Assembly: GCA_964612665.1 (NCBI GenBank)
Contig: CAZTCI010000004.1
Span: forward strand, 14,376-78,375
Reading direction: 5' to 3'
DNA: 64,000 bases
Source: an uncultured Planctomycetales bacterium
GTDB taxonomy: Bacteria > Omnitrophota > Gorgyraeia > Zapsychrales > JAHFFX01
The notes under the pieces were generated by a model. It made no database searches, was not told where the DNA came from, and was given only the letters and a program-made list of their open reading frames with translations. The stretch's first letter is position 1. The number at the start of each line of letters is the position of its first letter. The translations under genes and the position numbers were made by a program. Shown here one piece after another: positions 30,931 to 58,799 of the stretch.

Positions 30931-31023
30931 TGAAGTCCTTTCTTAGTATTGTTCTATTCATTTTTGTGTGTCTTTGATATTTTTCATATTCGATTTATTC
31001 CAGAATTGAATGGCAAATATAAT

Positions 31024-31055
31024 CCCTGAACCGCTCATAAAGCGGTTCAGGGAAA
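31024..31055 (-). terminator. Stem-loop terminator between paralogs 2 and 1
   Basis: ccctgaaccgctcataaagcggttcaggg hairpin 9 nt downstream (minus strand) of the paralog-2 stop (31064). The U-tract is weak. Confidence 0.45.
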
Positions 31056-31063
31056 GTGAAAAT

Positions 31064-33478: not shown

Positions 33479-33633
33479 GAAGTCCTTTCTTAATTGATTA
33501 ACATGAAGGAACGATTCTTATGTTATGAATACGGTTCGTTTTAATGAATAAAAAAATCCATTCTTCATTGTTGGCTTTTTTTGTATTTTCGAATAGTTCA
33601 TGTTTGATCTATTTCGGTCCGTCCTTTTCAAAT

Positions 33634-36600: not shown

Positions 36601-36666
36601 GCAGGAGGTTGCAGTTAAAAACATGATTACGGAGAAAACGATCTTCTTAATGGGGCGCATCATCAT
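33634..36666 (-). CDS. Paralog 3 (beta-helix type B + 2x LamG/ConA-like lectin domains + CHB_HEX_C-like + C-terminal Ig-like Cys domain)
   Basis: Starts MMMRPIKKIVFSVIMFLTATSCASAATYYVAKTGSD…. Two ~190-aa repeats carry the LamG-type signature (…ALSFDGVDD.ATVPLTTSTQNLSSFTYSAWIKPNSLGEASYGRIVSRES…WNHVAVTYDDKGDR.LHLFVNGVET…) and replace the discoidin pair of the other paralogs. Confidence 0.75.
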   Translation of the reverse strand: MMMRPIKKIVFSVIMFLTATSCASAATYYVAKTGSDSYSCAQAQSLSAPKLTILAGIGCMTGGDTLTIKAGTYTDLISEISKGSPIIPAGSASAYTTIQAANGETVLIEPLDGGNYNAAFSIRNNQYLKFIGLTIDGSNMPGGVDQYAGNNIIVGGNAHDIIFDKCEMRNGQSGVFETWDPLDVYNITVRNSSLHTVLVSSRYNHVLYNSARNSLFENNDIYGSPGGWCIQQYWSGGSGLNNNIYRNNRIHDCVDGGVMINVGDNNLVANNLIYNNTSYSAVHLAWGGTGNQVFNNTMVGNGGNCVSGNNHDTNSIIKNNICWQNANNIIDDAAIGIGNVISNNLFTDPKFVSATDFHLQAGSAAIDAGANLSSVGITTDFEGKSRPQGSGYDIGAYEYGGTVAPPPPGAPLPVAAASWNLDEGSGQTIVDRVAANHGFLGLSTAAESSDPARVLGKYGSALSFDGVDDVATVPLTTSTQNLSSFTYSAWIKPNSLGEASYGRIVSRESSVKYDDFYLLVNPGNTISASITNSAGTTFISYAVASSISLNAWNHVAVTYDDKGDRKLHLFVNGVETTYQAQPPVTGTLKFTNNPILIGNTPSLDRTFDGAIDEVNVYNRALSASEISNVFNSPPYSIIDTWNFDESSGQTISSSNGSNNGILGFNNTVESFDPARLAIGKFGAALSFDGVDDIATIPLTTSTQNLSSFTYSAWIKPNSLGEASYGRIVSRESSAKFDDFYFLVNPGNTLCASVTNSAGTTFISVSATSAISLNSWNHVAVTYDDKGDRQLHLFVNGVETAYQSQNPLTGTLKFTTNPIVIGNAPSLDRTFDGAIDDLRLYSRALSAAEIQSLYSTPIQVAAPTMSPNGGTFTAPVSVTLSAPVGASIYYTTNGSTPTTSSSLYTAPMTLSSTTTLKAIAVKNGMLNSTVASASFTINLPPTTIVLSAAPILTWSTTNATSCTASGSWTGTEPLSGTASLGSVSTTASYVLTCTGPAGTKQGRATLTIDYP

Positions 36667-36744
36667 GAAGTCCTTTCTTAATTGGTAATATATTGGAAGA
36701 TTTTTGATTCTTTTTTCTTTTTTAGGATTGTTGTCATGTTCAAT

Positions 36745-39201
36745 TTAATGAGGAATTAAATCCCAAGATTTCTGCACGGTGCCGCCAGGGCCGGTGCAGG
36801 TTAAGGTTAAAGTTTGAGAAGAATTCATCGTCCCTAAACTTGCGGTGCCGTTGATGGGTTCTGGTCCAGTCCATCCGCCGGAAGCGGTGCAAGTGGTCAT
36901 GTTGGTTGTAGACCAGGTGAGAACGGGAGCCACACTTAAGTTGAGTGTTCCTGGAATATTGACCGTAAAAGTGGCGCTGGCCACCGGACTAGTAGTCATG
37001 CCGGTTTTAACAGCAATGGCTTTAAGTGTTGTGGTGGAAGTTAAAGTTATAGGACTAACATATAAAGATGAAGAACTCGTTGGAATAGAACCGTCAGTTG
37101 TGTAATAAATCGAAGCGCCAGAGCTCGCGCTTAATGTAACAGAGACTGGTGCAGAAAAAGTACCGCCGTTGGGAGAAAAAGAAGGCGGAGAAAGAACTGA
37201 AGGCGAATTTTTGTAATCGACTTCAGTAACCCAGAAGATACCTGTGTAAGTAGGATTACCCATGTTAGCTGGTTGAAAGAATCTGATTCGGGAAGTGGTG
37301 ACCGCTGGAAAAGTGACTGAAGAACTGGCAACATCGCCGGAATAAGTAGTTGAGCCCAAAGTGATCCAGGCTGTTCCATTCCAAGACTGAACATCGACGC
37401 GCTGGGAGGTCATGTATTTATTTTGAGACGTATTAAAAGCCCAAGAAATAGTAGCGGAGTTGAGTTGTGTTTTTTGAGAACCAAAATCAATTTGAATCCA
37501 ATGATCGAGGCTGTTATCAGAGGAAGCCCAGGTGGTTGCCGTGCCGCCGGAGGCGTTGATGACTTCATCGTCGATGGGATTCGTTGTGTAACCTGAATAG
37601 GTACTGTCGACGGAGACAGCGCGGTTGCCATATTCAACCTCGGTGACCCAGAAGACGGTGTTGTAAGTGGGATTACCAAGGTTAGCGGGTTGAAAGAAAC
37701 GTAATTGAGAAGTCGTGACGGCTGGAAAATTAATTGAAGAACTGGCGATATCGCCGGAGTAAGTCATAGAACCTAAAGTGACCCAAGCCGAACCATTCCA
37801 AGATTGAACATCAACCCGCTGAGAGGTCATGTATTTATTCTGGGCAGTGTTAAAAGCCCAGAAGATGGAAGCGGTATTGATTTGTTGAGGAGAAGTAAAA
37901 TTGAATTGAATCCAATGAGCGAGCGTATTGTCAGCCGAAGCCCATGTAGAAGTTGTGCCGCCGGAGGCATTGATAACGCCATCGTCAATGGGCGTGAGGG
38001 TATATCCAGAGAAAGTACTGTCGACGGAAACTGAAGCTCCAGAAGGAGGAGGTGTAGCGCCCCCATATTCATAAGCACCGATATCAAAGGCGGCTCCTTG
38101 AGGACGCGGGGCGTTGTCGAAATCCGTTGAAATTTTTGAATAACTAATGCCTTTATCAATGGCAGGACTTGTGGACTTGAGATGATAATCTCCGCTGCCA
38201 TTGGCTTGGTAGTTTACAAATTGAGGATCAGATTGAACATCTCCGGCGATTGTTACTAAACTCGCAGCACCGCCGTACAGATAGTCGTATGGCTTAGTAT
38301 TGTTGTAGAGAAGATTGTTCATGTAACTTATATTTGAAGAGCCTGAGCCAAGGCCATACATCATAATACCGGGGCCTGTATTACCATAGAAGATGTTATT
38401 GGCGACATAGATGTCGTGTATGGTGTTTCCCCCATCTGAACCCATAATTAATCCTGCACTGCCGCTGTTGAAAACAAGATTATTGACCACATCCACATTG
38501 TATGGATGATGATACAAATGAATCGGGTAAGAATTGACTCGATAAATAATGTTGTTGGCGATAACGCCACTGCCGTAGCCCTGATAAATACCGTGCTGCC
38601 CAGGGATGCCCGGCACAGAAGGACAAGCAAACGAAAGATCGTGCACTGAATTACCGATAATGTCGTTATCCGTAGCGTCTCGGGGACTGACGTTACCTGA
38701 TCCAGCCGTGTCAATTGCAGAACCCATGTCCCCTGTCCCGTATGTGCCGCAGTCAGCGCGGCCGAGATCATGAACGTGATTTCCTAAAATTTTGGTGTGA
38801 GACGCATAGTTTAAGATGCCGATGATGGCGTCGCCTGAAATATCAAACCCTTCGATGTTTATGTAATCCACATAGTTCGTCCAAATATAGGTCGATCCTG
38901 ACGTCCGTATTTTTGCTCCCCACGGTTGCTGAGAAACAAAACGAACGCGTCCCGCGGTGGAGTTCCCACCCCGGCTGGTACTTATGGATCCGTTGTAAGT
39001 TCCCGGCATAACCATAACAACATCACCTGCATTTACTATATTGGCTGCCTTTTGAATTGTTTGAAATGGCGCGGTTGATGAACCGCAGGTGCTGCAATCT
39101 GAACCCGTCGGAGAGACGTAGTAGGTTGCCGCTGAGGCGGAGATTACAGTTGTGAAAAAAAAGACAAAGGTGAAAATGCAATTTTTAAATAGATATGACA
39201 T
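36745..39201 (-). CDS. Paralog 4 (beta-helix type A + 2x discoidin-like + CHB_HEX_C-like + C-terminal Ig-like Cys domain) with a replaced N-terminus
   Basis: Starts MSYLFKNCIFTFVFFFTTVISASAATYYVSPTGSD…. The first ~20 codons differ from the family leader but are still signal-peptide-like. An aagga RBS lies upstream. The remainder is collinear with paralog 2. Confidence 0.7.
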   Translation of the reverse strand: MSYLFKNCIFTFVFFFTTVISASAATYYVSPTGSDCSTCGSSTAPFQTIQKAANIVNAGDVVMVMPGTYNGSISTSRGGNSTAGRVRFVSQQPWGAKIRTSGSTYIWTNYVDYINIEGFDISGDAIIGILNYASHTKILGNHVHDLGRADCGTYGTGDMGSAIDTAGSGNVSPRDATDNDIIGNSVHDLSFACPSVPGIPGQHGIYQGYGSGVIANNIIYRVNSYPIHLYHHPYNVDVVNNLVFNSGSAGLIMGSDGGNTIHDIYVANNIFYGNTGPGIMMYGLGSGSSNISYMNNLLYNNTKPYDYLYGGAASLVTIAGDVQSDPQFVNYQANGSGDYHLKSTSPAIDKGISYSKISTDFDNAPRPQGAAFDIGAYEYGGATPPPSGASVSVDSTFSGYTLTPIDDGVINASGGTTSTWASADNTLAHWIQFNFTSPQQINTASIFWAFNTAQNKYMTSQRVDVQSWNGSAWVTLGSMTYSGDIASSSINFPAVTTSQLRFFQPANLGNPTYNTVFWVTEVEYGNRAVSVDSTYSGYTTNPIDDEVINASGGTATTWASSDNSLDHWIQIDFGSQKTQLNSATISWAFNTSQNKYMTSQRVDVQSWNGTAWITLGSTTYSGDVASSSVTFPAVTTSRIRFFQPANMGNPTYTGIFWVTEVDYKNSPSVLSPPSFSPNGGTFSAPVSVTLSASSGASIYYTTDGSIPTSSSSLYVSPITLTSTTTLKAIAVKTGMTTSPVASATFTVNIPGTLNLSVAPVLTWSTTNMTTCTASGGWTGPEPINGTASLGTMNSSQTLTLTCTGPGGTVQKSWDLIPH

Positions 39202-39571
39202 TGAAGTTCCTTTTCTTGCTAGAGGAATAATAGTATAAAAACATTTCAGAATATCGCTTTGTTCGTTCCTCGAATGATTGTAATGTTTTATAAATATGGG
39301 AATGAAATCCCAATATGTTTTCTGAACCGTTCTTTACAGAGCGGGACAGGATAAGATGTAATTTATGAAATGAGTTGAGAGTCTCTTTGTTTATCTGGGA
39401 GTAAGAGACTTGGTAAGTAATTACGGGAATAGTGCAGAGGGTAATTAAAAAAAAGCTGGCAGCAAACCAGCAATAAGCGGTGTGGCTATTTCTGGCCGCA
39501 AAAGCGGAAGTAATAGTCGTAAGAAAAACGATTAGACTGAGGACGATCTCCTTAATGGGGCGCATCATCAA
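39185..39571 (-). pseudogene. Stranded 5' fragment of the paralog family (conserved leader and signal peptide, then unrelated frame)
   Basis: Encodes (TTG)MMRPIKEIVLSLIVFLTTITSAFAA…, which matches the MMMRPIKK signal peptides of paralogs 1-3. It then diverges into low-complexity sequence and terminates where paralog 4 starts. The upstream nucleotide block …ggacgatctccttaatggggcgcatcatca… matches the 5' leader of the other copies. Confidence 0.55.
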
Positions 39572-40167
39572 GAAGTCCTTTCATTCAAAACTTATCTAAA
39601 GATAATTTATGGTGTCCCCTCTATATTGGTTCCTCTGTTATTTAAGGGTAGGCTTTCCCTTAAATTGGAGTCATGGACTCCCAGGTTTCGAACCCTTGTT
39701 GAAGCAAGAATAATCTTGCCAAAAACAAAAAAATCCATTCTGCATGTTAGAAGAATGGATTTATAAAAGCTGGGGCGAGCTTTTGGGTTCATGTTTTGCT
39801 TTTCCTTAGAATGGCTTAATTACAAAATGTATATCATGGAATGCAAAGAAATACAAGGCGTAGGCGCTGTTTCGCGGAAAACGTTTTTTTAAATTTAAGG
39901 ATAATAGCTGTGATATTAGTTATTTGTTTTCAAGAGTATATGATTTATTTATTTGAGTCTCATTCTTAACCAAAAAAAATTTAAAAGAATTTTAATATTT
40001 GTGGTTTAATAAACACAGATTTTTTGGATAATAGAAGACCGAAGATTATTCTAAATCCATTCACACTGATCCCTTCAGTGGTTTTATTCAAATAATTTTC
40101 AATAATGAGTTACCTCTTTACACGTACGCTATAATATAACCAACATTTTTAAAACAAGGAGTTAATA

Positions 40168-40926
40168 ATGAAGATGATCAATCTGCGCCGCCTCCCTATA
40201 ATCTGCAGCATTGTGTTTTTCAATTATTTAATGGGAGTTGTTTATGCCGCTGATGTGCAAACGAATATGGTGTCTTATCGTCCGGCGCCGCCAGCCATGG
40301 GAGATTTGACTCTCTGGCAAATGTTAGTGGCGGGCGGGGTCGTCATGATTTTTATCGGTCTTTTATCGATTCTGGCACTGTCCATCATTGCCTATGAATT
40401 TATGACGCTGCGGGCGGAAAAATTGGCGCCGCGCGAATTTTTTGAAGATATCGCCACCAAACTTGAAACTGCAAAAATTGATGAAGCCAGGGAATTATGT
40501 CTTAATGAAAATAATATCCTGGCTAAAATTGTTTTAGCGGGCTTGGACCGGGGTGAAAGGCATAACGGCGATATGTCTTCAATGAGAGAAGCGATGGAGC
40601 ATCGTGCACGTATAGAGGTCGGTAAACTTTGGCAGAACCTTAATTATTTATCTGACATCGTCGCGGTTGCGCCTCTTTTAGGATTATTAGGAACGGTTTT
40701 GGGAATGATCCAGGCTTTTCATGCCGTTCCCTTACAATCGGCTGGCGCAAAAGTTGCGATGCTCTCGGCGGGTATTTCAAAAGCAATGATTGCCACCGCT
40801 TCAGGTTTGATTATCGCGATTCCTGTCTTGATGGCTTATTCTTATTTTCGTGGGAAAGTTCAAGAAGTCACATCGGATATTGAAAGTTACAGTACGGACC
40901 TTATTAAAGTTATGGAAAATGCTTAA
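40168..40926 (+). CDS. MotA/TolQ/ExbB-family proton channel with N-terminal signal peptide
   Basis: N-terminal signal peptide (MKMINLRRLPIICSIVFFNYLMGVVYAADV). The ExbB core is …VAPLLGLLGTVLGMIQAF…GISKAMIATASGLIIAIPVLMAYSYF…. Confidence 0.8.
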   Translation: MKMINLRRLPIICSIVFFNYLMGVVYAADVQTNMVSYRPAPPAMGDLTLWQMLVAGGVVMIFIGLLSILALSIIAYEFMTLRAEKLAPREFFEDIATKLETAKIDEARELCLNENNILAKIVLAGLDRGERHNGDMSSMREAMEHRARIEVGKLWQNLNYLSDIVAVAPLLGLLGTVLGMIQAFHAVPLQSAGAKVAMLSAGISKAMIATASGLIIAIPVLMAYSYFRGKVQEVTSDIESYSTDLIKVMENA

Positions 40927-41027
40927 TGAGCGCATTACCCGCCTTAAAAGCTTTCAGGCGGGGTAGAAGCGCGAATTAACCCTGCGTTTTTTGCGGAGTT
41001 AAGAATTCAAAATTACTAGGAGCGGCT

Positions 41028-41450
41028 ATGTCCAAATTCGACATTTCAGAAAATTTCAAGCAAAGACCAGTTATTCAACTCGCGCCCTTGGTCGATATTG
41101 CTTTTTGGGCGCTGATTTTTTTTATGATCATTGCCATTTACAGTAAGATGGAATCTGAACTCGATATTACTGTTCCCAAATCAACCGCATCGATCGAGTC
41201 AGCCCCGAACGCTGGAAAAATGGTCATTAATATTTCCCGCGACGGACGGTTTATCGTTAATGACAAAGAAATGGATGCCGCGGCGCTTGATGACATGATG
41301 AAAAAAGTTTCGAACTTATTTCCTAACCAACAGGTGATTATCCGCGCGGATGAATTGGCCTACCATAAATACGTAGTTCAAGCCTTAGACGCTTGTATGC
41401 ACGCCAACATTTCGGATGTTTCCTTTTCAACCATTAAAGAAGAAAAATAA
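41028..41450 (+). CDS. ExbD/TolR-family protein
   Basis: 140 aa with a single TM (LAPLVDIAFWALIFFMIIAIY) followed by a periplasmic domain, as in ExbD/TolR. Confidence 0.8.
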   Translation: MSKFDISENFKQRPVIQLAPLVDIAFWALIFFMIIAIYSKMESELDITVPKSTASIESAPNAGKMVINISRDGRFIVNDKEMDAAALDDMMKKVSNLFPNQQVIIRADELAYHKYVVQALDACMHANISDVSFSTIKEEK

Positions 41451-43795
41451 TGAATCGCAAAACCATTATTGCTATTCTTTTGGTTTTCTGTTCATTGGTT
41501 TTCAGGTGTAATGTTTTTGCGCAAAGCGTTCCTGAAAAAGAAACAGAAGACCTGGATTTTGCCCAAGGACTTTTAAGCCGCGGTCTTTATGATATGGCGG
41601 CCAATGAATATCAGAAATTTATTGCCAACCATCCGCAAAGCACTTATCTTCAAGAAGCTAACCTTGCCGTCGGAGAATGCTATTTTTTGCTGCAAGACAA
41701 CGCCAAGGCCATTGACGCCTTTAATCATTTTAAACAACTCTATCCTAATTCTGAAAAAACGCCGACCGCTACTTTACGTTTAGGGCAGATCTATATTGAG
41801 CAAGGACGGTTCGATGATGCCATCAAGGAATTGACTTCAGCCGATCCCGCTCAGTTAAAAGCAGAAACGCTGCAGTCATTTTATTTTTATATTGGCAAAG
41901 CTTACCGCGGTAAAAATGACGCGGCTTCAGCGCTTAAGTTTTTGCAAAAGGCCTCAGAAGTGACTGGCGTGCAAGCGCAGACGCCTTACGCCTTTCAAGA
42001 GCTCGCCGAAGTTCATGTTCAAAATAAAGAATATAAAGAGGCGGTTGAGGCTTACACGAAAGCCCTCCAAGCGACTCAAGAAGATAGTTTAAAAGGTTAT
42101 CTTCTCTACAAACTCGGCGAGGCACAATTTTTATCCGAAAATTACGCCGAGGCTATTAATCAATTCAACCAAGTTCTCACTCAGTATCCCAATCTTGAAA
42201 TAACCAAAGACGCTCTTACAAATTTATTGCTGGCGCATTTTAATTTGGCGCAATATGACCAGCTGATGACAGCGTATCAGAACAACGCCAAGCTCATTAA
42301 AGAAGACGGCGCCTACACGCCAGTTTTTTTAACGGTTGCGAAAGCTTTGGCCGCGCTTAAAAAATTTGACGAAGCAATCGCCCTTTTAGATAAGACGGCC
42401 GCTTTGCCGAATTCAAAAGATGAAGATAAACGAAAAGTTGCTTTGAAAAAAGCTGAAATCTTAATTAACGCCAAAAAATATCAAGACGGTCTAGCTATTT
42501 TAGAGGGGCCTCTTCCCGCCGGAGACGGCGCGGGTGCTGATGAGATTTCATTCTTAAAAGCACAAGCGCATTACGGGCTTGGTCAATTTGATAAGGCGTC
42601 TGAATCTTTTCAAGAAGTCAAAAACAGCAATGCCGATTCCAATTATGCTCATGCTTCACTTTTAGGCATGGCGCATGCTTTTCAAGAATCAAAAAATTAT
42701 AAAGAAGCGGACGCGCGGTTTCTCGAATACTACGCCAGTGAAAAAGACGACAATCTCAAAAGCGAGGCGCTTTATGATGCCGCTTTAATGGAAGTTAAAT
42801 TAAACGCCAATGACCAAGCCGTTGCTCATGCGCAAGAATATTTGGACAAATTTTCGACGGGAAGCCGTTATGAACAAAGTCTTTTGATGCTTGGAGATCT
42901 TTACTCGAAAACGAATCAGTTTGAGAAAGCCGTCAACTTGCTGCAGGATTATTTGACTAAGGCCAAACAAATTCAACGGTTGGATTCAGTTGAATTTCTT
43001 TTAGGCTACAATCTTCAACTTTTAGCGCGCGGCAATGAAGCCATCGCAACGTACAGCAAAGTTCCATTAAATAAAGATGACCCGCAATTTTTTGTCTCCG
43101 CCATGAAAAATACAGCGGCCATTTATATCGGTGAGAAAAAAGAAGCGGAAGCTGCCGCGGCGTTTGATCAGTTAATTTCAGCCGTCGATAAAAATGTTCT
43201 TGAAGTCAAAACTTATCTTTGGGTCTGCGAACAATATTTAAAACAGAAAAAGTTTAACGACATTTTGCGGATCACGGATAAGGCGCAAAAGTTTTTCCCT
43301 AATGATAGTGTACAGGAGACTGCTTATTTTAGGGCCGAAGCTTCCCGTGAACTAAAAGATTTCGATAACGCCGCTAAATTGTATGACGTTGTTTTAACGT
43401 CGACGGCAAAGAGCATGTATACGGGCGGCGCGCACATTGGCAAAGGTTTGATTTTGATCGAAGCCAAGAAATTTGATGAGGCCAAGGCGGAATTTCAAAA
43501 AGCCATCGATGAAAACGCGGATGATCATACAATTACGCTTCGTGCCCGTTATGAAATGGCGAACATCGCCAGTGCGCAAAATAATCCGGAAGAAGCTCTC
43601 AAATTTTATTTGCTTGTTGGAACAATCTATGACGACGACACCTATTGCCCGGATAGTCTTTTGCGCGCGGGAAAAATTCTTGAAACATTAAACCGCAAAG
43701 AAGAAGCCGTCAAGCTTTACCAAGAAATCCAAGACAGATATAAAGACAGCCCAGCCGCTCATGAATGTCAGGAAAGGATTAGTGCTTCAAAGTGA
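41450..43795 (+). CDS. Large secreted TPR-repeat protein (781 aa)
   Basis: Signal peptide followed by more than 15 TPR-like units (…AIDAFNHFKQLYPNSEKTPTATLRLGQIYIEQGRFDDAIKEL…). Start overlaps the exbD-like stop (taATGa). Confidence 0.75.
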   Translation: MNRKTIIAILLVFCSLVFRCNVFAQSVPEKETEDLDFAQGLLSRGLYDMAANEYQKFIANHPQSTYLQEANLAVGECYFLLQDNAKAIDAFNHFKQLYPNSEKTPTATLRLGQIYIEQGRFDDAIKELTSADPAQLKAETLQSFYFYIGKAYRGKNDAASALKFLQKASEVTGVQAQTPYAFQELAEVHVQNKEYKEAVEAYTKALQATQEDSLKGYLLYKLGEAQFLSENYAEAINQFNQVLTQYPNLEITKDALTNLLLAHFNLAQYDQLMTAYQNNAKLIKEDGAYTPVFLTVAKALAALKKFDEAIALLDKTAALPNSKDEDKRKVALKKAEILINAKKYQDGLAILEGPLPAGDGAGADEISFLKAQAHYGLGQFDKASESFQEVKNSNADSNYAHASLLGMAHAFQESKNYKEADARFLEYYASEKDDNLKSEALYDAALMEVKLNANDQAVAHAQEYLDKFSTGSRYEQSLLMLGDLYSKTNQFEKAVNLLQDYLTKAKQIQRLDSVEFLLGYNLQLLARGNEAIATYSKVPLNKDDPQFFVSAMKNTAAIYIGEKKEAEAAAAFDQLISAVDKNVLEVKTYLWVCEQYLKQKKFNDILRITDKAQKFFPNDSVQETAYFRAEASRELKDFDNAAKLYDVVLTSTAKSMYTGGAHIGKGLILIEAKKFDEAKAEFQKAIDENADDHTITLRARYEMANIASAQNNPEEALKFYLLVGTIYDDDTYCPDSLLRAGKILETLNRKEEAVKLYQEIQDRYKDSPAAHECQERISASK

Positions 43796-45522
43796 CAGTG
43801 CCAGAAATTATTAAAAAAAGAATTTTCCAGTCAATCTTAATCTCGCTTTTAATCCATTTGGGATTTTTGATCTGGAGTTTTTTTGTTAAATTGGTGCCAT
43901 ACAGCGGTCTCGTCAACAAACCGGACAAGACATTGCATATTAAAATGGCGAAGGAGGAAAAGCTCGGCGGACGGGAAACAACCCAAAGCAGCGACAATCG
44001 TACTTCTGAAAAATCGTTGCACCCAGAAGATCCTTCCACTCAAGCGGCTTTGGAAACTCAGCCTGAATCGCCCGAAGTTGTGCGCGATAAAATCGCAGCA
44101 GCGGTTCCAAACCATAATGAAGCGCTGGTACCAGCAGCGCCGCAGAAGAATTTTTATAAGCCCCAAAAAAATGATGTGATGGTGACCAAAAAAGTCCGAC
44201 GGGCGACCCGCAAGAATTTAGTCGATGTCGGCGAAATTCCGCAGGCAGATTTTGCTTCGGGCTCACCGGTCATTGTTTCGGGCGAAGATATTTCGCAAAA
44301 TTTTCTGGATAAAGGTTACTTGGCGGTTAAAGCCGGTCCATCTTCACCCATGCAGGTGGCCAACGGACCTGACCAGTTTCAAGTGATGCAAAAAAGCTCG
44401 GCGGGCTTAAGCCGGAAATTAAAAGCTGCAGATTTAGGAACAACATTAATTTATGAACTGACCAAGTATCAGGACCCTAAATCAGGTCAAAAGTATTTTA
44501 AGTTGGTGGTTAAAGTAAAGGACGCGACGGCTAACTTCCCTGTCGTTCCAAAAGAAATCATTTTTCTAGTTGATGCTTCCGAAAGTATTGGTGAGGTACG
44601 TTTAAAGCAGTTTCAGGAAGGTCTTAACTACAGTTTAAATCATCTAAATCCCGACGACCGTTTCAACATTTTAATTTTTAAAGATAAAACGATTCCGTTT
44701 AGCCCGCAGTCGCTTAAACCGGAACCGGACAACATCAAAAAAGCCATCCAATTCTTGGAAGATTTAAAATCCGGCTCCCGGACGGATGTTTACGATGCAT
44801 TACAGACGAGTATGGATTTTCAAAATTCCTTCGAACCGTCTTATCGGGTTTTATTAAGCGATGGATTTCCGACAAAAGGGGTCACTAATTCTCGTCAGGT
44901 TATCAATGAGATTTCAGACATGAATAATGGAAAGTTCAGCGTTTTTAGTTTTGGCGGAGGTGTTAACATAAGCCAATATATGCTGGATTTTCTCGCCTAT
45001 AAAAACCGCGGATGGTCGCAGACGGTTGATCGTGAATACTTAATTGGCAAAGAGTTTGCCAAATTGTCGGACCGCATTAAAGATCCGCTGCTTTTACATC
45101 TGCGCTACCGGATTAACGGTCTTAATGAAAAGGAAGTGTTTCCACAAATTCTTCCGGACTTTTTTAAAGGTTCGGAGTTTGTAATTTATGGTACTTTTAA
45201 AGATGAAAATAAATTTGTCGTCCAGGTTTTAGGAAACGCTTTGGGTGAAACAAAAGAATTTATTGTCAATGCCGCGCTGGATGACGCTGCCGCCGGCAAT
45301 AAAGATATCGCTAGGCAATGGGCCTTCCACAAAGTTTATCATTTGATCAGTGAATTGAAATTTAACGAAGATAACCAAGCGCTTATTAAAGAAATTGATG
45401 ACTTGTGCGCGAAGTTTGAGATTGTAACGCCGTATTCTCGAAACTTCCGGGAGTCCCATAAATCAAAAAAAGCACCGGCAGTTAAAGACGCTCCAAAACC
45501 AGAGCCTGCTCCTTCCAAGTAA
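43792..45522 (+). CDS. Membrane-anchored von Willebrand factor type A (vWA) protein with TonB/TolA-like SxxxH transmembrane anchor
   Basis: GTG start overlapping the TPR stop (gtGA). The single N-terminal TM helix …FQSILISLLIHLGFLIWSFFV… contains S-x3-H, as in TonB/TolA anchors. A charged/Pro-rich linker follows. The vWA domain has the MIDAS motif 'FLVDASESIG' plus …ILIFKDK…VLLSDGFPTKG…. Confidence 0.7.
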   Translation: MTVPEIIKKRIFQSILISLLIHLGFLIWSFFVKLVPYSGLVNKPDKTLHIKMAKEEKLGGRETTQSSDNRTSEKSLHPEDPSTQAALETQPESPEVVRDKIAAAVPNHNEALVPAAPQKNFYKPQKNDVMVTKKVRRATRKNLVDVGEIPQADFASGSPVIVSGEDISQNFLDKGYLAVKAGPSSPMQVANGPDQFQVMQKSSAGLSRKLKAADLGTTLIYELTKYQDPKSGQKYFKLVVKVKDATANFPVVPKEIIFLVDASESIGEVRLKQFQEGLNYSLNHLNPDDRFNILIFKDKTIPFSPQSLKPEPDNIKKAIQFLEDLKSGSRTDVYDALQTSMDFQNSFEPSYRVLLSDGFPTKGVTNSRQVINEISDMNNGKFSVFSFGGGVNISQYMLDFLAYKNRGWSQTVDREYLIGKEFAKLSDRIKDPLLLHLRYRINGLNEKEVFPQILPDFFKGSEFVIYGTFKDENKFVVQVLGNALGETKEFIVNAALDDAAAGNKDIARQWAFHKVYHLISELKFNEDNQALIKEIDDLCAKFEIVTPYSRNFRESHKSKKAPAVKDAPKPEPAPSK

Positions 45523-45667
45523 TTTTCTTTAGAGCGAGATCGCTCGACGAATCATTAACATTAAACAACTTCCTTTGATTTTTGTTTCAAAAGAGCTGGT
45601 AAAAAAAGTGGGACATTTTTCTGCAGGAAATGTACTATATAAAAATAAACCTTGCGGAGGATCATGT

Positions 45668-46318
45668 ATGCCTAAAGTTAAGAATGAAACCATCATGAAA
45701 CAGCTCAACTGGCGTTACGCGACACAAAAATTTGATCCTAAAAAAAAGATTTCAGCCGAAGATTGGCATACGCTTGAAGAATCTTTAAGGCTGACGCCTT
45801 CCTCCTACGGTTTGCAGCCGTGGCATTTTCTTGTTGTTCAGTCGCCGCAGATCCGTAAAAAATTAACGCCCGCATCATGGAACCAGCCGCAGATTGAAAC
45901 CTGCTCACATTTGCTCATCGTGACACACTTGAAAATGATGACGAAAGAATATGTTGAAATTTATATCCAAACAATTTCTAAAATCCGCGGGGTTGCGGAA
46001 AAAGACCTTAAGAGGTTTAGAGATGTTTTGGTGAATGATGTTGTCGAAGGAACGGGCGTGAGTGATCAATCGCATTGGGCCGCTTTACAGGCTTATCTTG
46101 CCATGGGCGTTTTTATGACGGTTGCGGCGCTTTTAAATATCGATGTTTGTCCGATGGAAGGCATTATTCCCAAACAATACGATGATATTTTGGGGCTCAA
46201 AGATTCCCGTTACACGACATTGGCGGTCTTGGCCGCGGGTTACCGTGCCGCCGACGATCAATTACAGCATGCCAAGAAAGTCCGGTTTGAACGCAACCAT
46301 GTGATCCAAGTGATCTAA
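45668..46318 (+). CDS. Nitroreductase-family NAD(P)H-dependent flavin oxidoreductase
   Basis: Start at MPKVKNE… with a ggagga RBS 8 nt upstream; the longer ORF (45575) lacks support. Family motifs are …RYATQKFDPKK…SSYGLQPWHFLVVQSP…. Confidence 0.75.
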   Translation: MPKVKNETIMKQLNWRYATQKFDPKKKISAEDWHTLEESLRLTPSSYGLQPWHFLVVQSPQIRKKLTPASWNQPQIETCSHLLIVTHLKMMTKEYVEIYIQTISKIRGVAEKDLKRFRDVLVNDVVEGTGVSDQSHWAALQAYLAMGVFMTVAALLNIDVCPMEGIIPKQYDDILGLKDSRYTTLAVLAAGYRAADDQLQHAKKVRFERNHVIQVI

Positions 46319-46417
46319 TTTAGAATCCATTAGATTCCGATACTCAATAATTTTGGACAAAATTAGATTTATAGAGTATCCTTTCCTATTTACAAATTCA
46401 CTATAAAGAAAAGAGAG

Positions 46418-47629
46418 ATGTTTTGTATGTATAAACAATTTATGCAGCAACGACCTTTTTTATTCACTCATCGGCTGGTTTTCCTAATAATAGGGCTTTT
46501 AATGTTAGTGTCTTTGGCGGGTTGTGGACATAAACAAGATCAAGCGCATAAAGGTGAGATGCCGCCGGCGGAAGTTGGTGTTGTCACGGTGACAGCGGAG
46601 GCTGTGCCGTTGACCGCGGAATTGCCGGGACGGATTGATGCGATTCGAGTGGCCGAAGTCCGGGCGAGAGCGACGGGAATTTTGCTTCAGCGTTTATTTA
46701 AAGAAGGTGCGGATGTCAAAGCCGGTGATATTCTTTTTCAAATTGATCCCGCACCCTTAAAAGCCAATTATAATAATGTGAAGGCCAATTTAGCTAAAGC
46801 CGAAGCGAATTTGAAAGCAACGCAGTCTAAAGCTGAACGTTATAAGACGCTGGTTGAAATTAACGCGGTCAGTAAACAAGATTATGACGATGCCGCGGCT
46901 GCTTTGCTTCAAGCCCAAGCCGAAATCCAGTCAGCGCAAGCGGCTGTAGAAACAGCCACGTTAAATCTCGGTTACGCGACAGTGACCGCGCCAATTTCAG
47001 GCCGGATCGGTCCAGCCAAAGTAACCGAAGGTGCGCTCGTTAACCAGAATGAAGCAACCCCGCTTGCCGTTATCCAACAATTAGATCCTATCTATTTTGA
47101 TTTTACCCAATCCAGTACCGAAGTGTTGCGCATGAAACGGACTTTAGCTCAAGGCCAGCTTGAAAGTGTGGCGCCAGGAGAAGCTAAAGTCACCTTGCTG
47201 CTTGAAGATGGTACGACTTACCAGCAATTTGGTAAACTTTTATTTTCAGATACAACCGTTGATCAATCGACGGACATGATAACGTTGCGCGCAGAGTTTC
47301 CTAATCCCGACGGGCTTTTGTTGCCTGGAATGTTTGCTCGCGGCAAGTTGGTGCAAGCCGTTAATACAAAAGCAATTTTAGCGCCGCAGCGTGGCGTTGC
47401 ACGTGACCCAAGCGGAACAGCAACTGTCATGGTGGCAACACCCGATAATAAAGTTGAAGCAAAAACAGTTAAGACCGGCCCGGCGATTGGTGATAAATGG
47501 GTCATCACAGAAGGTCTTTCCGCCGGAGATCAGGTTATCGTCGAAGGATTGCAAAAAATTCGGCCTGGCGCGACTGTTAAACCAGTACCGTTTACATCTT
47601 CCGCCGATAAAGTATCTTCAAAACAGTAG
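46418..47629 (+). CDS. RND efflux periplasmic adaptor subunit (MexA/AcrA family lipoprotein)
   Basis: Lipobox LAGCG. It has the lipoyl/beta-barrel adaptor signature (…VTAPISGRIG…) and a coiled-coil hairpin region (…ANLAKAEANLKATQSKAERYKTL…DYDDAAAALLQAQAEIQSAQAAVETATLNLGYATVTAP…). Confidence 0.85.
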   Translation: MFCMYKQFMQQRPFLFTHRLVFLIIGLLMLVSLAGCGHKQDQAHKGEMPPAEVGVVTVTAEAVPLTAELPGRIDAIRVAEVRARATGILLQRLFKEGADVKAGDILFQIDPAPLKANYNNVKANLAKAEANLKATQSKAERYKTLVEINAVSKQDYDDAAAALLQAQAEIQSAQAAVETATLNLGYATVTAPISGRIGPAKVTEGALVNQNEATPLAVIQQLDPIYFDFTQSSTEVLRMKRTLAQGQLESVAPGEAKVTLLLEDGTTYQQFGKLLFSDTTVDQSTDMITLRAEFPNPDGLLLPGMFARGKLVQAVNTKAILAPQRGVARDPSGTATVMVATPDNKVEAKTVKTGPAIGDKWVITEGLSAGDQVIVEGLQKIRPGATVKPVPFTSSADKVSSKQ

Positions 47630-47636
47630 CGAGGAG

Positions 47637-47686
47637 AGAGTAGAAAGTAGAGAGTGCGGTGAAATAGCTGACTCTCTACTTTCTGC
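47637..47686 (+). other. Long intercistronic stem-loop between RND adaptor and pump genes
   Basis: gagagtagaaagtagagagt-gcggtgaaatagctg-actctctactttctgc forms a ~16-bp stem with a 15-nt loop. No run of T residues follows the hairpin, and the pump start codon is 28 nt downstream. Confidence 0.6.
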
Positions 47687-47714
47687 TTTAATGATACAGT
47701 ATTAAGAAAGAAGT

Positions 47715-50700
47715 ATGGCTAAATTTTTTATTGATCGTCCCATTTTTGCGTGGGTCGTTTCTCTTCTTATTATGTTGCTGGGAATTTTGGCGATTACCAA
47801 ATTGCCTGTCGCTCAATATCCCAGCGTCGCGCCGCCTGCGATTTCCGTTTCAGCACTTTACGCCGGAGCGTCCGCAGAAACTTTGCAAAACACCGTTACA
47901 TCTGTCATCGAACAACAGATGAACGGTATTGATAATCTGCTTTATATTTCTTCCAGTAGCAATGCAAGCGGCCAATCGACGGTGACTTTATACTTCCAAC
48001 CTGGAACCAATCCTGACATCGCCCAAGTTCAAGTCCAAAACAAAGTTCAATTAGCTATTCCCAATCTACCTCAAACTGTCCAACAGCAAGGTGTCAGTGT
48101 TGCCAAAACAACGCGTAATTATCTGATGTTTTTTACATTGTCTTCGACCGACGGGCGGATGGATGAAATTGCTTTGGGGAATTATATTGCCTCAAGCGTT
48201 CTTGATTCGATCCGTCGTGTCTCCGGTGTCGGGCAAGCCGATATGTTTGGCACCGAATATGCCATGCGGATCTGGTTGAATCCCGAGAAGCTGACAAGTT
48301 TTAATTTAACAACAAACGATATCATTAACGCCATTCAAACCCAAAATGTTCAAATCGCCGTCGGGCAGCTAGGCGCCCGGCCGGCTGTCTCAGGTCAGGA
48401 GTTGAATGTGACTTTGCAGGGACGAAGCACCTTGCAGACGGTCGAAGATTTTCAAAATATTTTGCTTCGAGTCAACGCAGATGGATCTCGTGTTCTTATG
48501 CGCGATGTGGCGCGCGTTGCTCTTGAGGGTCAGGATTATACGACGCAAGCCCGCGTGAATGGACGTCCGGCGGCAGCCGTTGCTATTCGGCTTTCTCCAT
48601 CGGCCAACGCGATTGCTACAGCAGACGCTGTGCGGGCGAAAGTGAATGACCTTTCAAAATTCTTCCCACCTGGCATTCGGGTTGATTATCCTTTCGATGG
48701 ATCGAGCTTTGTTCATATTTCAATAGAAGAAGTTGTAAAGACCTTAGTCATTGCAATCTTTCTTGTCTTTTTAGTTATTTATCTATTTTTACAAAACATC
48801 AGAACAACAATCATTCCAACGATCGTTGTTCCTGTCGCGTTATTGGGGACTTTTGCGGTTATGAAGGCGTTGGGATTTTCCATTAATGTTTTAACCATGT
48901 TTGGATTGGTCTTGGCTATTGGAATTCTCGTCGATGATGCGATTGTGGTTGTTGAAAACGTAGAACGGATCATGCATGAAGAGGGCTTAGGCCCGAAAGA
49001 AGCCAGCCGAAAGGCCATGGAACAAATCACCGGGGCCTTGATCGGGATTAGTCTCGTGTTGACCGCCGTTTTTATTCCGATGGCCTTTTTCGGCGGATCG
49101 GTCGGCGCTATCTATCGACAATTTTCACTTTCTCTTATTGCATCGATGTTGTTTTCAATCTTTCTCGCGATGTCTCTGACACCCGCTTTATGTGCCACAT
49201 TATTAAAACCCGTCGAGCAAGGAAACCATCAGCGTAAAAAAGGTTTCTTCGGTTGGTTTAACCGCTCATTTACTGCAGGCACACAAAAATATCAAACAAC
49301 CGTGGGCCAATTGCTTAACAAAACAGCCATTTGTTTGATTATTTATATTGTTATTGTGGCCGCTGTTGTTTGGCTTTATACCCGTTTGCCTTCAGCCTTT
49401 CTTCCAGACGAGGACCAAGGCTATTTTATGACGAGCATACAATTGCCCGTCGGCGCGACGCAACAGCGCACACTTGAAGTTCTTAAACAAGTCGAGGCTT
49501 ATTATTTGAAACAACCTGAGATCGACAGCATCATTACTGTTGCGGGTTTTAGTTTTAACGGCCGCGCTCAAAATTCTGCGTTTGGTTTTATACGTTTAAA
49601 AGATTGGAATGAGCGTCGCGGAGCTCAGCATAAAGTTCAAGCGATTGTGGGGCGCGCTTTTATGAATTTGGCCGGCATTAAAGACGCTATTATTTATCCT
49701 ATTAATCCGCCGCCGATTTTTGAACTTGGAACTTCATCGGGTTTTGATTTTCAACTGCAAGATTTGAGTGGTTTAGGTCACGAAAATTTTATGAAGGCGA
49801 GAAACGAACTTTTAGCCAAAGCAACGAAAAACCTTAATCTCGTCGGTGTCCGTATCCAAGGATTGGAAGATGCTGCGCAGCTTAAGATTGATATCGACGA
49901 CAACAAGGCCAGCGCTTTGGGCGTTTCGTTAAATGATATTAATACTACTCTTCAAGCAAACTTGGGATCGCAGTATGTTAATAATTTTGTGAATGGAAAC
50001 CGGGTTCAGCGCGTCCTTGTTCAGTTGGATGCGCCGTACCGGATGCTGCCTGAGGATATTGGAAAAGTTTTTGTGCGCAATGTTGCTGGGAAAATGGTCC
50101 CATTGTCGACGATTGTTAATTTGCGCTGGACTTATGGCTCGCCTCAGCTTCAACGTTACAACGGTTTTCCATCGATTGAATTTTTAGGCCAAGCGGGCCC
50201 TGGAAAAAGTACCGGCCAAGCGATGAAGGCGATGGAAGATATGGCCAAAGAATTGCCGGCTGGCGTTGGCTACGAATGGACCGGCCAGTCTTATGAGGAA
50301 CGTCTCTCCGGCGCTCAAGCGCCGATTCTTTATACGCTGTCACTCATCGTCGTGTTTTTGTGTTTAGCGGCGCTTTATGAAAGCTGGTCGATTCCATTTG
50401 CGGTTATGCTGGTTGTTCCGTTGGGGATTTTGGGCGCGTTGTTATCCTCGACTCTGCGCGGCTTGCCTAACGATGTTTATTTTAAAGTCGGGTTGTTGGC
50501 CATCATTGGGTTGTCGACGAAGAATGCCATTCTTATTATCGAATTCGCCAAAGATTTGCAGGCGAAGGGAAAAGGTTTAATTGAAGCGACATTGGAAGCC
50601 GTGCATTTGCGGTTACGTCCGATATTAATGACGTCACTCGCGTTTATTTTAGGTGTTCTCCCTTTGGCGCTCAGCCAAGGTGCGGGCTCGGCGAGTCAGC

Positions 50701-50882
50701 ACGCGATTGGGACTGGAGTTGCGGGTGGAATGTTTTCGGCGACAATACTCGCGATCTTTTTTGTGCCGGTCTTTTTTGTTACTGTCCGCCGTATATTTAA
50801 AGGTGAGATCCGCCGGCATGATTCCAATATTCCAACGGAGCCGCGCATTATTGTTGAGAAGGATGAATCTCGCCATGAATAG
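47715..50882 (+). CDS. RND multidrug efflux pump, inner-membrane permease (AcrB/MexB/HAE1 family)
   Basis: 1055 aa. Canonical N-terminus [27 protein letters not shown] and 12-TM RND topology. Conserved TM4 region …[20 protein letters not shown]…. Confidence 0.9.
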
Positions 50883-52299
50883 ACAACTCGAATTGATTCT
50901 CATCTTGATTGCATTGAACGGATGTTCGCTTATTCCAAAATACGAACGCCCCGCCGCACCGGTTTCAAGCCAATGGCCCGATGCTGAAGATAATAAAAAT
51001 TCAGAAGGAAAGACAGCCTCGGATATCGGCTGGCGTGAATTTTTTAGCGATCCGCGTTTACAGAAATTAATTGAACTGGCGCTTGCCAACAATCGCGATC
51101 TACGCATCGCGGTTTTAAACGTCGAAGAATTGCAGTCGCAATACCGCATTTTACAGTATGCACTATTACCCACTTTCGATATCAGCGCAACGGGCGAACG
51201 CCAACGCGACGTTTTATCCGACGGAAGGCATCTGACAACCACTAAATACAAAGTCACTTTAAATACGGCGTACGAAGTTGATCTTTTTGGAAGGATCAGA
51301 AGTTTAAAGAAACAGGTGCTTGAACAATATTTTGCAACCGCCGAAACGCGCCGCAGTGCGCAGATCACGCTGATGGCTCAGGTGGCCATTCAATATCTAA
51401 CCGAGCGCGCGCTCGATGAGCAACTGGCTCAATTAGAACATACCTTAGAATCTGTTGAAGCTTACTATCAGTTAATAAAGAAAAGTTATGAATTAGGAAA
51501 TACATCTGAACTTGACTTGCGTTCCGTCGAGGCTCAGGTCCAAACGGTGCGCGCGGATATTACCGATTATAAACGTCAACGCTTACAAACTGAAAATGCT
51601 CTAGTGTTGTTGATTGGTGAACCGTTGCCGGATGATTTACCGCTGCCGCAGCCTTTAGGTACTCAGCATTTATTAAGTGATTTACCGGCGGGAATTCCTT
51701 CCGATCTTTTAGAGAGGCGTCCGGATATATTGGCGGCCGAACATCAGTTAAAGGCGGCGAATGCGAATATTGGCGCGGTCCGTGCCGCATTTTTTCCGCA
51801 AATAACGTTGACGACGACATCAGGTTCGGCGAGCGTGCAATTGGCGAAACTTTTTACCAAGGGTTCGGAAGTTTGGAATTTTACTCCCGAAATACTTTTG
51901 CCGATTTTTAACCAAAACACCAATGCAGCGAATTTGAAGGTTGCTAACGTGCGTAAGCGGATCGAAATTACAAATTATGAAAAAGCCATCCAAACGGCTT
52001 TTAGTGAAGTGGCCGACGCACTGGCCGCTCGTTCAACTTTTACGGAACAATTGTCTGCGCAAGATGCCTTGACCAAGACGCAGGAAGCTCGTTATAAGTT
52101 GGCGGGCGCGCGTTATCGTAACGGCGTCGACAGTTATCTTACCGTGCTTACCGCTCAGCAAGATCTTTATCGCGCCGAGCAGGCCTTAATCCAAGTTCAG
52201 TTTTTGAGGCTTTCTAATCTGGTCAATCTCTATAAAGCGCTTGGCGGGGGATGGGAAGAATATTCTTCGGCGGAAACCACCACCAACCGCGGGAATTGA
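50875..52299 (+). CDS. RND efflux outer-membrane factor lipoprotein (OprM/NodT family)
   Basis: Start at [18 protein letters not shown] (lipobox), overlapping the pump stop by 8 nt. The ORF-track 5' extension to 50653 lies inside the pump gene and is rejected. Two OEP repeats; C-terminal …LYKALGGGW. Confidence 0.85.
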
Positions 52300-54962: not shown

Positions 54963-55022
54963 AAATAAATGAATTTAATTGGGCGCCCAAGGCTCGATTA
55001 TATAAATTTGAAAAGAAGCGAA

Positions 55023-58795: not shown

Positions 58796-58799
58796 TCCA

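Follow-up and report, generated by a model that had tools for sequence, protein, structure and literature searches.

The 64,000-nucleotide stretch analyzed here, referred to as the window, belongs to contig CAZTCI010000004.1 (assembly GCA_964612665.1, forward strand, positions 14,376 to 78,375) of an uncultured Omnitrophota bacterium, and contains a cassette of four plus-strand genes encoding an ExbB/TolQ-like protein, an ExbD/TolR-like protein, a secreted protein built of tetratricopeptide repeats (TPR), and a protein bearing the von Willebrand factor A (vWA) domain (Table 1). A first-pass annotation, made from the DNA letters alone, had read this cassette as a module, energized by the proton motive force (PMF), that carries a vWA domain where TonB or TolA would have its own C-terminal domain, and the four open reading frames (ORFs) on which it relied were all recovered at the same coordinates. 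The ExbD and TPR genes overlap by 1 nt (TAATG), and the TPR and vWA genes by 4 nt, with the GTG start of the vWA gene lying over the TPR stop codon; across the family, the gene junctions are likewise short or overlapping. The gap between the ExbB and ExbD genes is ≤20 nt in 85 of 106 family loci, and the window, with 101 nt, is the sole outlier above 100 nt. Because of this gap, translational coupling, which had been proposed for all four genes, is limited to three of them, holding at the ExbD/TPR and TPR/vWA junctions and failing between ExbB and ExbD. The G+C content of the cassette (∼42%) is that of its surroundings. Promoter and terminator scans of the operon region scored no better than shuffled sequence, an Rfam scan of positions 39000-46500 gave no match, and a tRNA search found none in the 64-kb window. 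A public protein (P0001) is 100% identical to the vWA protein, whose homologues are annotated as 'VWA domain-containing protein [Candidatus Omnitrophica bacterium]', the source of the named ones being Candidatus Omnitrophica/Omnitrophota.

Table 1. Features of the vWA cassette and of the canonical Ton cluster in the window (aa, amino acids; TM, transmembrane; AF2, AlphaFold2; pLDDT, predicted local distance difference test; TBDR, TonB-dependent receptor; MIDAS, metal ion-dependent adhesion site).
Feature	Position	Strand	Evidence
ExbB/TolQ-like motor subunit, 252 aa	40168..40926	+	Pfam MotA_ExbB 3e-32
ExbD/TolR-like motor subunit, 140 aa, TM Asp D23	41028..41450	+	Pfam ExbD 2.9e-22
TPR protein, 781 aa, secreted non-lipoprotein	41450..43795	+	TPR Pfam families and NCBIfam YbgF/CpoB
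vWA 'transducer' protein, 576 aa, GTG start	43792..45522	+	VWA_3 2e-10, VWA 2.5e-8, VWA_2 2e-7, each above its cut-off
N-terminal TM anchor, residues 5-34	43804..43893	+	AF2 helix, pLDDT >90
Candidate motor box, residues 45-54, core L48-H49-I50-K51	43924..43953	+	Family conservation
Disordered, predicted periplasmic linker, residues 35-214	43894..44433	+	pLDDT <50 over residues 52-213
Globular head, residues 215-556, ITIH-like	44434..45459	+	AF2 pLDDT mostly >90; Foldseek
MIDAS motif D261-A-S263-E-S265 (with T331 and D357)	44572..44586	+	Invariant in alignment
TBDR with CarboxypepD_reg and Plug	16360-19371	+	
DUF3450 protein	19387-20424	+	
Long MotA_ExbB, 523 aa	20313-21884	+	
ExbD-like ORF	21886-22305	+	
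TonB, anchor 'CAVLIHLGF'	22302-23123	+	TonB_C 5.5e-18
Second MotA_ExbB	23130-24071	+	
TPR protein of the Ton cluster	24084-25520	+	

The vWA protein begins with a short cytoplasmic segment, as predicted from the positive-inside rule, because K8-K9-R10 stand ahead of its TM helix, and by the same rule the head would be periplasmic. The single N-terminal helix, which had been singled out in the first pass for the motif 'ISLLIH', indeed contains S18-x3-H22. When the 77 full-length homologues from 80 Omnitrophota genome loci were compared, every one of them had [S/A]-x3-H in this helix (His in 77, preceded at -4 by Ser in 70 and by Ala in 7). An information profile of these sequences, aligned on the His, gave 4.3 bits for the His itself and 3.9 bits for the Ser/Ala at -4, with further conservation at -8 (A/S/P), +3 (F/L), and +7 (S/A), and the remaining TM positions varied freely. 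In the window protein the conserved positions are S14, S18, H22, F25, and S29, which form one face of the helix. For the known third subunits, cryo-electron microscopy (cryo-EM) of the Escherichia coli complexes places TonB S16/H20 in contact with ExbB S34/W38, and TolA S18/H22 in contact with TolQ S28/I29/W32 (PMC12215075).

Conservation also marks a second element, not seen in the first pass. The motif F-[RH]-[VIL]-K stands at His+26 to +29 in the 77 Omnitrophota sequences (F in 58 of the 77), and its version in the window, L48-H49-I50-K51, lies 13 residues past the end of the helix. Box elements of this kind are established in both known systems; the D-box of TonB and the R-box of TolA are found 10-15 residues from the TM helix, and add a strand to the periplasmic dimer of ExbD or TolR (PMC12905483, a 2026 review). 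The conserved motif of the vWA proteins occupies the D-box/R-box position, and we predict that it binds ExbD; in what follows it is called the candidate motor box.

Between the anchor and the head, an AF2 model built on 78 homologues (alignment A2) shows disorder at residues 52-213. This spacer had been described as rich in Pro, a description that did not survive a count of its composition (8% Pro, 26% charged, and 24% S/T/Q/N over residues 35-214), and the linker is better described as disordered and polar. It contains conserved linear motifs, KKVRRxxRxNLV-x-GE-x-P (around R140/P150) and SG-x-PV-x2-SGEDIS, and both R140 and P150 are kept in ≥90% of the 78 sequences. The head that follows is modeled as a beta-hairpin (residues 219-242), a vWA domain (255-429), a beta-sandwich (432-495), and a helical bundle (505-556), and the protein ends in a tail rich in Lys and Pro. 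In a Foldseek search of the PDB, the best match for the head was 6fpy, the structure of inter-alpha-inhibitor heavy chain 1 (ITIH1; E 1.9e-25, 343 columns, root mean square deviation 3.8 Å), in agreement with a sequence match of residues 226-549 to NCBIfam TIGR03788 (3e-37), whose 128 bits compare with a cut-off of 552. The MIDAS of the vWA domain, read in the first pass as an intact 'DASES', is present as D261-x-S263-x-S265, and these residues are invariant, along with T331 and D357, in the 78-sequence alignment. The head is predicted to be metal-dependent. A Pfam scan of the 576-aa protein, with E values up to 0.1, returned VWA families and no TonB_C (PF03544), although the same scan does detect TonB_C in the true TonB of the window, and no Pfam or NCBIfam match to TolA domain III or TolA_bind, and no Pfam match to a VIT domain, was found in the protein. 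The earlier statement that a vWA domain takes the place of TonB_C or TolA domain III is consistent with these results, the fold of the head being vWA/ITIH-like.

The motor proteins of the cassette were assigned with scores well above the Pfam cut-offs (ExbB, 111.5 bits on MotA_ExbB (PF01618), cut-off 22.9; ExbD, 79.5 bits on PF02472, cut-off 25.4). On the NCBIfam models, the cassette ExbB reached 111 bits for tolQ (TIGR02796; cut-off 221) and 60 bits for exbB (TIGR02797; cut-off 206). As had been noted, it starts with a segment that resembles a signal peptide, and it also has an N-terminal amphipathic helix (DLTLWQM) and a first TM helix (TM1) with S72-I73-x2-Y76, of which S72 and Y76 fall on S28 and W32 of TolQ when the protein is aligned to ExbB/TolQ proteins of solved structure. 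Among 61 family members, the Pro of TM2 (P169) and the Thr ring (T176, T210) are kept in all, and the Pro of TM3 (P219) in 56; the residue equivalent to TolQ S28 is small (A 42, S 10, T 5, G 3), and the equivalent of TolQ W32 is Tyr in 54. The conserved Glu of TM3 is replaced in the cassette by K205 (40780-40782; 'GISKAM' aligned to 'GIAEAL'), and Lys occupies this position in every one of the 61 cassette ExbBs from Omnitrophota; in Hydrogenedentota the residue is Gln, Lys, Met, or Thr, and Glu is kept by the other two ExbB paralogues of the window. Each cassette has one ExbD-like ORF. D23 of the window ExbD aligns to the TM Asp of solved ExbD within the motif 'PFIDVMLVLLIIFM', and P-[LM]-[IV]-D is kept in 54 of 56 family members, the other two being one truncated sequence and one (SMIDIM) that also has the Asp. 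Because the ExbD Asp, the ExbB Thr ring, and the TM2 Pro are invariant, and the TM3 Pro is nearly so, we argue that the motor is active.

These residues also bear on the proposal that the vWA and TPR proteins form a passive bridge or hub between the inner membrane and the periplasm, with ExbB and ExbD serving as an assembly or stability factor and no force being transduced. The missing TM3 Glu could mean that motor activity is altered, as this proposal would have it, but the residues of proton-driven rotation are kept, and a conserved strand resembling the D-box or R-box is hard to explain if ExbD is not engaged. We consider a static role very improbable.

The third gene of the cassette fits its earlier description as a secreted, all-TPR protein, since TPR Pfam families match along residues 2-780, and the signal peptide is of the signal peptidase I type. 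On the NCBIfam YbgF/CpoB model (TIGR02795) it scored 177 bits over 7 stretches. A lipobox is absent from the signal peptide in 65 of 67 members of the TPR family, and the mature protein opens with a conserved 'E-x-LDFA-x-GL'. An AF2 model from the single sequence, used for secondary structure only, was all-alpha with ∼40 helices, at low confidence (pLDDT 61.6, predicted template modeling score 0.33). Of 82 sequence sets (the window and 81 loci), 80 have the TPR gene next to that of the vWA protein.

To evaluate conservation of the cassette, one genome per species was scanned, which gave 169 loci with a relative. The best 80 of these were analyzed by comparing their ORFs with the four window proteins; all 80 were Omnitrophota metagenome-assembled genomes (MAGs), some of them filed under Planctomycetes names. 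The order ExbB-ExbD-TPR-vWA was found in 62 of the 63 loci that had enough upstream DNA. ExbB was missing from 18 of the 80, 17 of which reach a contig edge within 3.5 kb upstream of the vWA gene; at the remaining one (L062), a giant ORF of at least 2380 aa and multi-pass membrane character (155-7297) lies directly upstream of the TPR and vWA genes. The vWA proteins of the syntenic loci are ∼30-66% identical to that of the window, and gene order that recurs over such distances argues that the arrangement is not due to chance. When the flanking ORFs were clustered, only the four cassette genes were conserved, and the next neighbor family appeared in 15 loci. There was no TolB- or Pal-like gene among the conserved neighbors, and no conserved gene for an outer-membrane conduit, beta-barrel, or lipoprotein beside the cassette. 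A TonB_C ORF was present within 10 kb in 1 of the 80 loci (L022), where it belongs to a separate TBDR-ExbB-ExbD-TonB-btuFCD unit with its own ExbB and ExbD. The first-pass annotation had named three findings that would speak against it, namely a canonical TonB or TolA gene in every cassette, a vWA gene that does not accompany ExbB and ExbD, and an anchor without conserved S-x3-H. The neighborhoods and anchors described above show the opposite in each case, and with the Hydrogenedentota loci described below they support both the conservation of the four-gene unit and the reading of it as a PMF-energized vWA module.

A canonical Ton cluster, complete and of the Vibrio TonB2/Ttp type, is encoded in the window itself (16360-25520, plus strand). 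This system was considered as the family of the vWA cassette and rejected. The presence of a canonical TonB nearby, whose anchor ('LIHLGFL') resembles that of the vWA protein, raises the possibility that the cassette ExbB and ExbD energize a TonB or TolA encoded elsewhere, and that the TPR and vWA genes are a co-transcribed Bat-like module whose TM helix is a mere anchor. A MoxR-type AAA_3 ATPase and a DUF58 protein are in fact encoded a few genes downstream of the cassette in ∼9 loci (L072, L075, L078, and about six related ones; for example, L075 13047-16111), as would be expected of such a module, but this adjacency is confined to one Omnitrophota subclade, while the four-gene unit is found in two phyla. 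Moreover, the canonical TonBs of the window and of L022 are each accompanied by a dedicated ExbB/ExbD and receptor; the canonical TonB systems of the genome thus have separate motors, and another motor belongs to the vWA cassette. Nor would a helix that served only as an anchor be expected, in proteins that are ∼30% identical, to retain an invariant His with Ser or Ala at -4, followed by a box at +26. Taken together, this explanation appears unlikely.

A word-index profile search with alignment A2 returned almost exclusively proteins already known from the first search, and none beyond Omnitrophota. In contrast, a clade in Hydrogenedentota was revealed when 1.84 billion representative proteins were searched exhaustively with a profile, 5959 of which scored E ≤ 1e-30. 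The exhaustive search added 142 proteins to those of the earlier searches, in three groups: 86 of standard length with a [SAGT]-x3-H helix, 32 long secreted VIT-vWA proteins, and proteins of ∼585 aa from Candidatus Hydrogenedentes, with an N-terminal helix that lacks the His. The same ExbB-ExbD-TPR-vWA cassette was found at the Hydrogenedentota loci L084 and L085, and at the metagenome locus L081. In L081 (1-4063), the genes that directly precede the cassette are murC, an ftsQ-like gene (POTRA_1), ftsZ, and one for a T2SSE-type ATPase; in the Omnitrophota loci, no such neighborhood of division genes was observed. In L085 (6619-8984), the TPR gene is split into an N-terminal ORF of 132 aa and one of 656 aa by a frameshift or assembly error; the 132-aa ORF was considered as a second TolR, and this was rejected, as it is the split N-terminus of the TPR gene. 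The MIDAS residues of the Hydrogenedentota alignment (A3; D296/S298/S300/T366/D393) are as invariant as those of Omnitrophota, and the box is at the same offset, His+26, in 69 Hydrogenedentota proteins.

The position of the anchor His is variable in this second clade. Among 63 Hydrogenedentota-type metagenome loci, His was present in 36, Tyr in 25 (∼40%), and Asn in 1 (L121); position -4 was S/A/T, and the box kept its offset of +26. On a neighbor-joining tree of the head domain, the distribution of H, Y, and N requires at least 9 changes, with His inferred at the root. A close pair of loci, L154 (His) and L105 (Tyr), have otherwise near-identical anchors and identical ExbB TM1 helices. These substitutions suggest that the position wants a polar side chain capable of hydrogen bonding and not strictly His. 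Arguments that rest on the His alone are weakened by this variation, and those that rest on the helix face and the box remain.

We propose that the cassette encodes a self-contained, PMF-driven envelope machine of the Ton/Tol type in which the vWA protein is the TonB/TolA-like third subunit, and we assign this reading a probability of about 0.7. By homology, ExbB, presumably a pentamer, and an ExbD dimer with D23 would form a 5:2 inner-membrane motor, and conservation and synteny suggest that the vWA protein takes the part of TonB or TolA. Its TM helix would dock on the outside of ExbB TM1 by way of the S18/H22 face, the L48-H49-I50-K51 strand would bind the periplasmic ExbD dimer as the D-box and R-box do, and the disordered linker of ∼180 residues may let the head cross the periplasm. 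There the invariant MIDAS could use a metal ion to bind an acidic residue on a partner, and the motor would then pull, move, or release this partner. The TPR protein, predicted to be soluble in the periplasm, would be an obligate fourth component, most likely an adaptor or scaffold that acts on the linker motifs or on the target.

Several observations weigh against this proposal. The case for coupling is made from conservation and analogy throughout. The cassette motor is without the TM3 Glu that is conserved in ExbB and TolQ, and its TM1, the predicted docking site of the anchor, has Tyr in place of Trp and mostly Ala in place of Ser. The SHLS motif, defined as S-x3-H-x6-L-x3-S in the TonB family (PMC12905483), is half kept in the vWA anchors, where the S and H are conserved, +7 is S/A and not Leu, and +11 is variable. 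The box is modeled by AF2 as a strand at residues 50-52 with low pLDDT, so that confidence in it is weak. Since Tyr and Asn replace the anchor His repeatedly in Hydrogenedentota, the His is not indispensable, and at recent H-to-Y switches (L105 compared with L154; L104) ExbB TM1 is unchanged. Lastly, L062 is one true exception to co-conservation, keeping TPR-vWA without ExbB or ExbD nearby, which also gives slight support to the model of a co-transcribed Bat-like module that was set out above.

A covariation test carries both a hint in favor of contact between the anchor and ExbB and a caution of its own. Columns from 38 distinct Hydrogenedentota ExbB sequences were compared by mutual information with the H/Y state of the anchor, and the column that corresponds to TolQ I29, which is in contact with TolA H22 by cryo-EM (PMC12215075), ranked 2nd of 228, although this comparison was chosen after the data had been viewed, and the clades are not independent and phylogeny confounds it, which counts on the negative side as well. 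The residue at this column was M in 18, W in 3, and L in 1 of the H-type loci, and L in 13 and M in 2 of the Y-type loci. This is the result expected of direct contact, and it is suggestive only.

The output of the machine is a separate question. Gliding has been suggested for published vWA transducers (PMC12204202), and in Myxococcus the vWA adhesin CglB is coupled to a TolQR-like motor (PMC9946355). By analogy, the cassette could be a minimal counterpart of the Agl-Glt system, with a TolQR-type motor driving a vWA adhesin, the TPR protein in the role of a Glt-like scaffold, and an outcome of movement over surfaces or of attachment to host or prey cells. An intact MIDAS suits adhesion, but a ∼180-residue linker ties the head to the inner membrane, and neither in nor beside the cassette is there a conserved outer-membrane conduit, beta-barrel, lipoprotein, or other Glt-like component. 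We regard this output as quite improbable; it concerns what lies downstream of the motor, and would be compatible with the coupling mechanism. Since conservation across two phyla extends to the unit and not to its neighbors, a core role at the envelope or outer membrane, such as Tol-like tethering or remodeling, is favored over a niche one, and this is the function toward which we lean.

Outside the cassette and the Ton cluster, the window holds exopolysaccharide genes (Polysacc_synt, Wzy_C, GT4, and a GH39-like hydrolase) followed by minus-strand genes for DUF3485 and the exosortase EpsH (82-9392). On the minus strand at 28373-39201, there are genes for four paralogous secreted proteins of 804-1010 aa, which combine a right-handed beta-helix with F5/8 type C or Laminin_G_3 and CHB_HEX_C_1/Fn3_assoc domains. 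Their translations have similar N-terminal signal peptides, that of 33634-36666 beginning 'MMMRPIKKIV', and a minus-strand ORF of 128 aa just upstream of the cassette (39185-39571) has a signal peptide that is nearly the same ('MMMRPIKEIV'); this ORF looks like the remnant of a fifth beta-helix paralogue. Downstream of the cassette, the plus strand encodes a resistance-nodulation-division (RND) pump with a membrane fusion protein, an AcrB-type transporter, and OEP (46418-52299), and an OEP-HlyD-MacB ATP-binding cassette (ABC) pump (54969-60776), the latter preceded by an extracytoplasmic function (ECF) sigma factor, a zf-HC2 anti-sigma factor, and an LTXXQ/CpxP-like protein. Positions 53011-53874 encode an Ada-like AraC-MGMT fusion.

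For a long time, to our knowledge, the known systems in which a 5:2 proton motor of the inner membrane pulls on the outer membrane by way of a TonB/TolA-type protein were limited to Ton and Tol. Genes for proposed "vWA force transducers" beside tolQ/tolR and TPR genes have since been reported (Mol Biol Evol 2025;42(6):msaf138; PMC12204202), and in that study the proteins are presented as a third kind of PMF-driven transducer, with AF3 models that show the helix bound to the motor by way of a conserved His. Their function is stated there to be unknown, and no deletion phenotype is reported. Since this study published the same computational hypothesis in 2025, the interpretation made in the first pass is not original. 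The carrier phyla listed are Proteobacteria, Planctomycetes, Verrucomicrobia, Bacteroidetes, and Rhodothermaeota; Hydrogenedentota is not among them, and Omnitrophota has 0 occurrences in the main text and appears in the supplement only within a catalogue of Tol-Pal systems. The window protein shows the traits described for the class, which are a TM helix with a conserved His, a disordered linker, a C-terminal domain of vWA fold, a predicted box, and synteny.

The present analysis contributes a sequence-distinct lineage, conserved across Omnitrophota and also found in Hydrogenedentota, that has an intact MIDAS, along with a defined box, His/Tyr/Asn variation that occurs naturally in the anchor, and a motor subtype without the TM3 Glu. 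A class that was proposed only in 2025, from few lineages and with no functional data (PMC12204202), now extends to two further phyla, as a strict four-gene unit with a sequence-distinct, MIDAS-competent head. This strengthens the case that vWA-headed machines are real and widespread, and indicates convergent evolution of the design. A wider picture is possible, which we put forward tentatively. Two unrelated vWA lineages may have been recruited independently onto TonB/TolA-type anchors, and the cassette of Omnitrophota and Hydrogenedentota may be a third, phylum-wide class of PMF-driven machine, with its own motor subtype (Lys/Gln in TM3, Tyr in TM1), an obligatory TPR partner, and a MIDAS-competent, ITIH-like head that grips its target by a metal-ion bond under load; its function would be a core envelope function, possibly replacing or complementing Tol-Pal. 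Handles for testing are the S/H face of the helix, the box at His+26, the His/Tyr/Asn variants, the Glu-less motor, and the invariant MIDAS, which can be mutated. As the host phyla are essentially uncultured, such work needs heterologous reconstitution.

Comparison with established systems shows what the cassette shares with each and where it departs. With Ton it has in common the 5:2 motor predicted from homology, the ExbD Asp and the ExbB Thr ring, a third subunit with a predicted cytoplasmic N-terminus and with S-x3-H in its only TM helix, a box ∼13 residues after this helix, and a long flexible linker. It differs in having neither a TonB_C domain nor a TonB-dependent receptor, in the Lys and Tyr that its ExbB has for the TM3 Glu and TM1 Trp, and in its obligatory TPR partner. 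Likeness to Tol-Pal is seen in the higher score of the cassette ExbB on the TolQ model than on the ExbB model, and in the CpoB/YbgF-type repeats of the TPR protein, CpoB being the TPR partner of the Tol system. The TPR protein is ∼three times the length of CpoB (PRK10803 model, 263 positions), there is no TolA domain III, TolB, or Pal in or beside the cassette, and the NCBIfam scores are below the equivalog cut-offs. The numbering of S18/H22 is the same as in E. coli TolA (PMC12215075).

Membrane-anchored vWA proteins encoded with a TPR protein are also found in Bat operons, which have the composition MoxR-DUF58-BatA/BatB(vWA)-BatC(TPR)-BatD, and the related loci with MoxR and DUF58 near the cassette add to this likeness. 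However, a long linker and an S-x3-H anchor are not Bat features, and in BatA-type proteins the vWA domain begins directly after the TM segments, with no linker of ∼180 residues. The window cassette has ExbB and ExbD instead of an adjacent MoxR or DUF58, and its TPR protein scores 25 bits on the BatC model against a cut-off of 175, so that identity as a Bat operon was rejected. In structure and sequence, the closest relatives of the head, which comprises hairpin, vWA with MIDAS, beta-sandwich, and helices, are ITIH1 (6fpy) and TIGR03788, and secreted VIT-vWA proteins are the next relatives in the profile search. The window protein differs from these in having a TonB/TolA-type anchor and linker instead of a VIT domain, signal peptide, or sortase signal; membership in the VIT-vWA sortase-target family (TIGR03788) was rejected on its score, the lack of VIT, and the Lys/Pro-rich C-terminus. 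Zorya and other known defense systems were rejected as well, as none of the four proteins matched a PADLOC model at E values up to 0.01. The view that the cassette is distinct from canonical Ton, Tol-Pal, Bat, and Zorya systems, put forward in the first pass, is thus upheld.

The closest design is that of the transducers of Tichowtungia described in PMC12204202, in which S-x3-H stands in a TM helix, the disordered linker includes a motor box, and the C-terminal domain has a vWA fold, and whose genes adjoin tolQ-like, tolR-like, and TPR genes. The two groups differ in their loci, as that of Tichowtungia has two transducers and two TolR-like genes, where the cassette has one of each, and the same study describes a pair of heterologous TolRs for the Planctomycetes-Verrucomicrobia-Chlamydiae (PVC) group. 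They also differ in their heads. The Tichowtungia protein has 'FILDANK' at the MIDAS position, where the window protein has D-x-S-x-S, and three VWA models match the window protein and a Hydrogenedentota homologue, while the Tichowtungia protein matches none of them (no Pfam VWA match at E ≤ 1). When the Omnitrophota profile was aligned with Tichowtungia transducer 2 by hhalign, using a sequence re-typed from a machine-read supplement table and one residue short (473 of 474), the probability was 37% (E 3.5e-4), over the vWA core only; homology to these transducers at the sequence level was what the WebFlaGs search of the published study relied on. These results suggest that the Omnitrophota and Tichowtungia groups share a design and no recognizable recent ancestor, and for this reason the lineage described here is counted as a distinct variant of vWA-headed machine and not as a mere new member of the published group.

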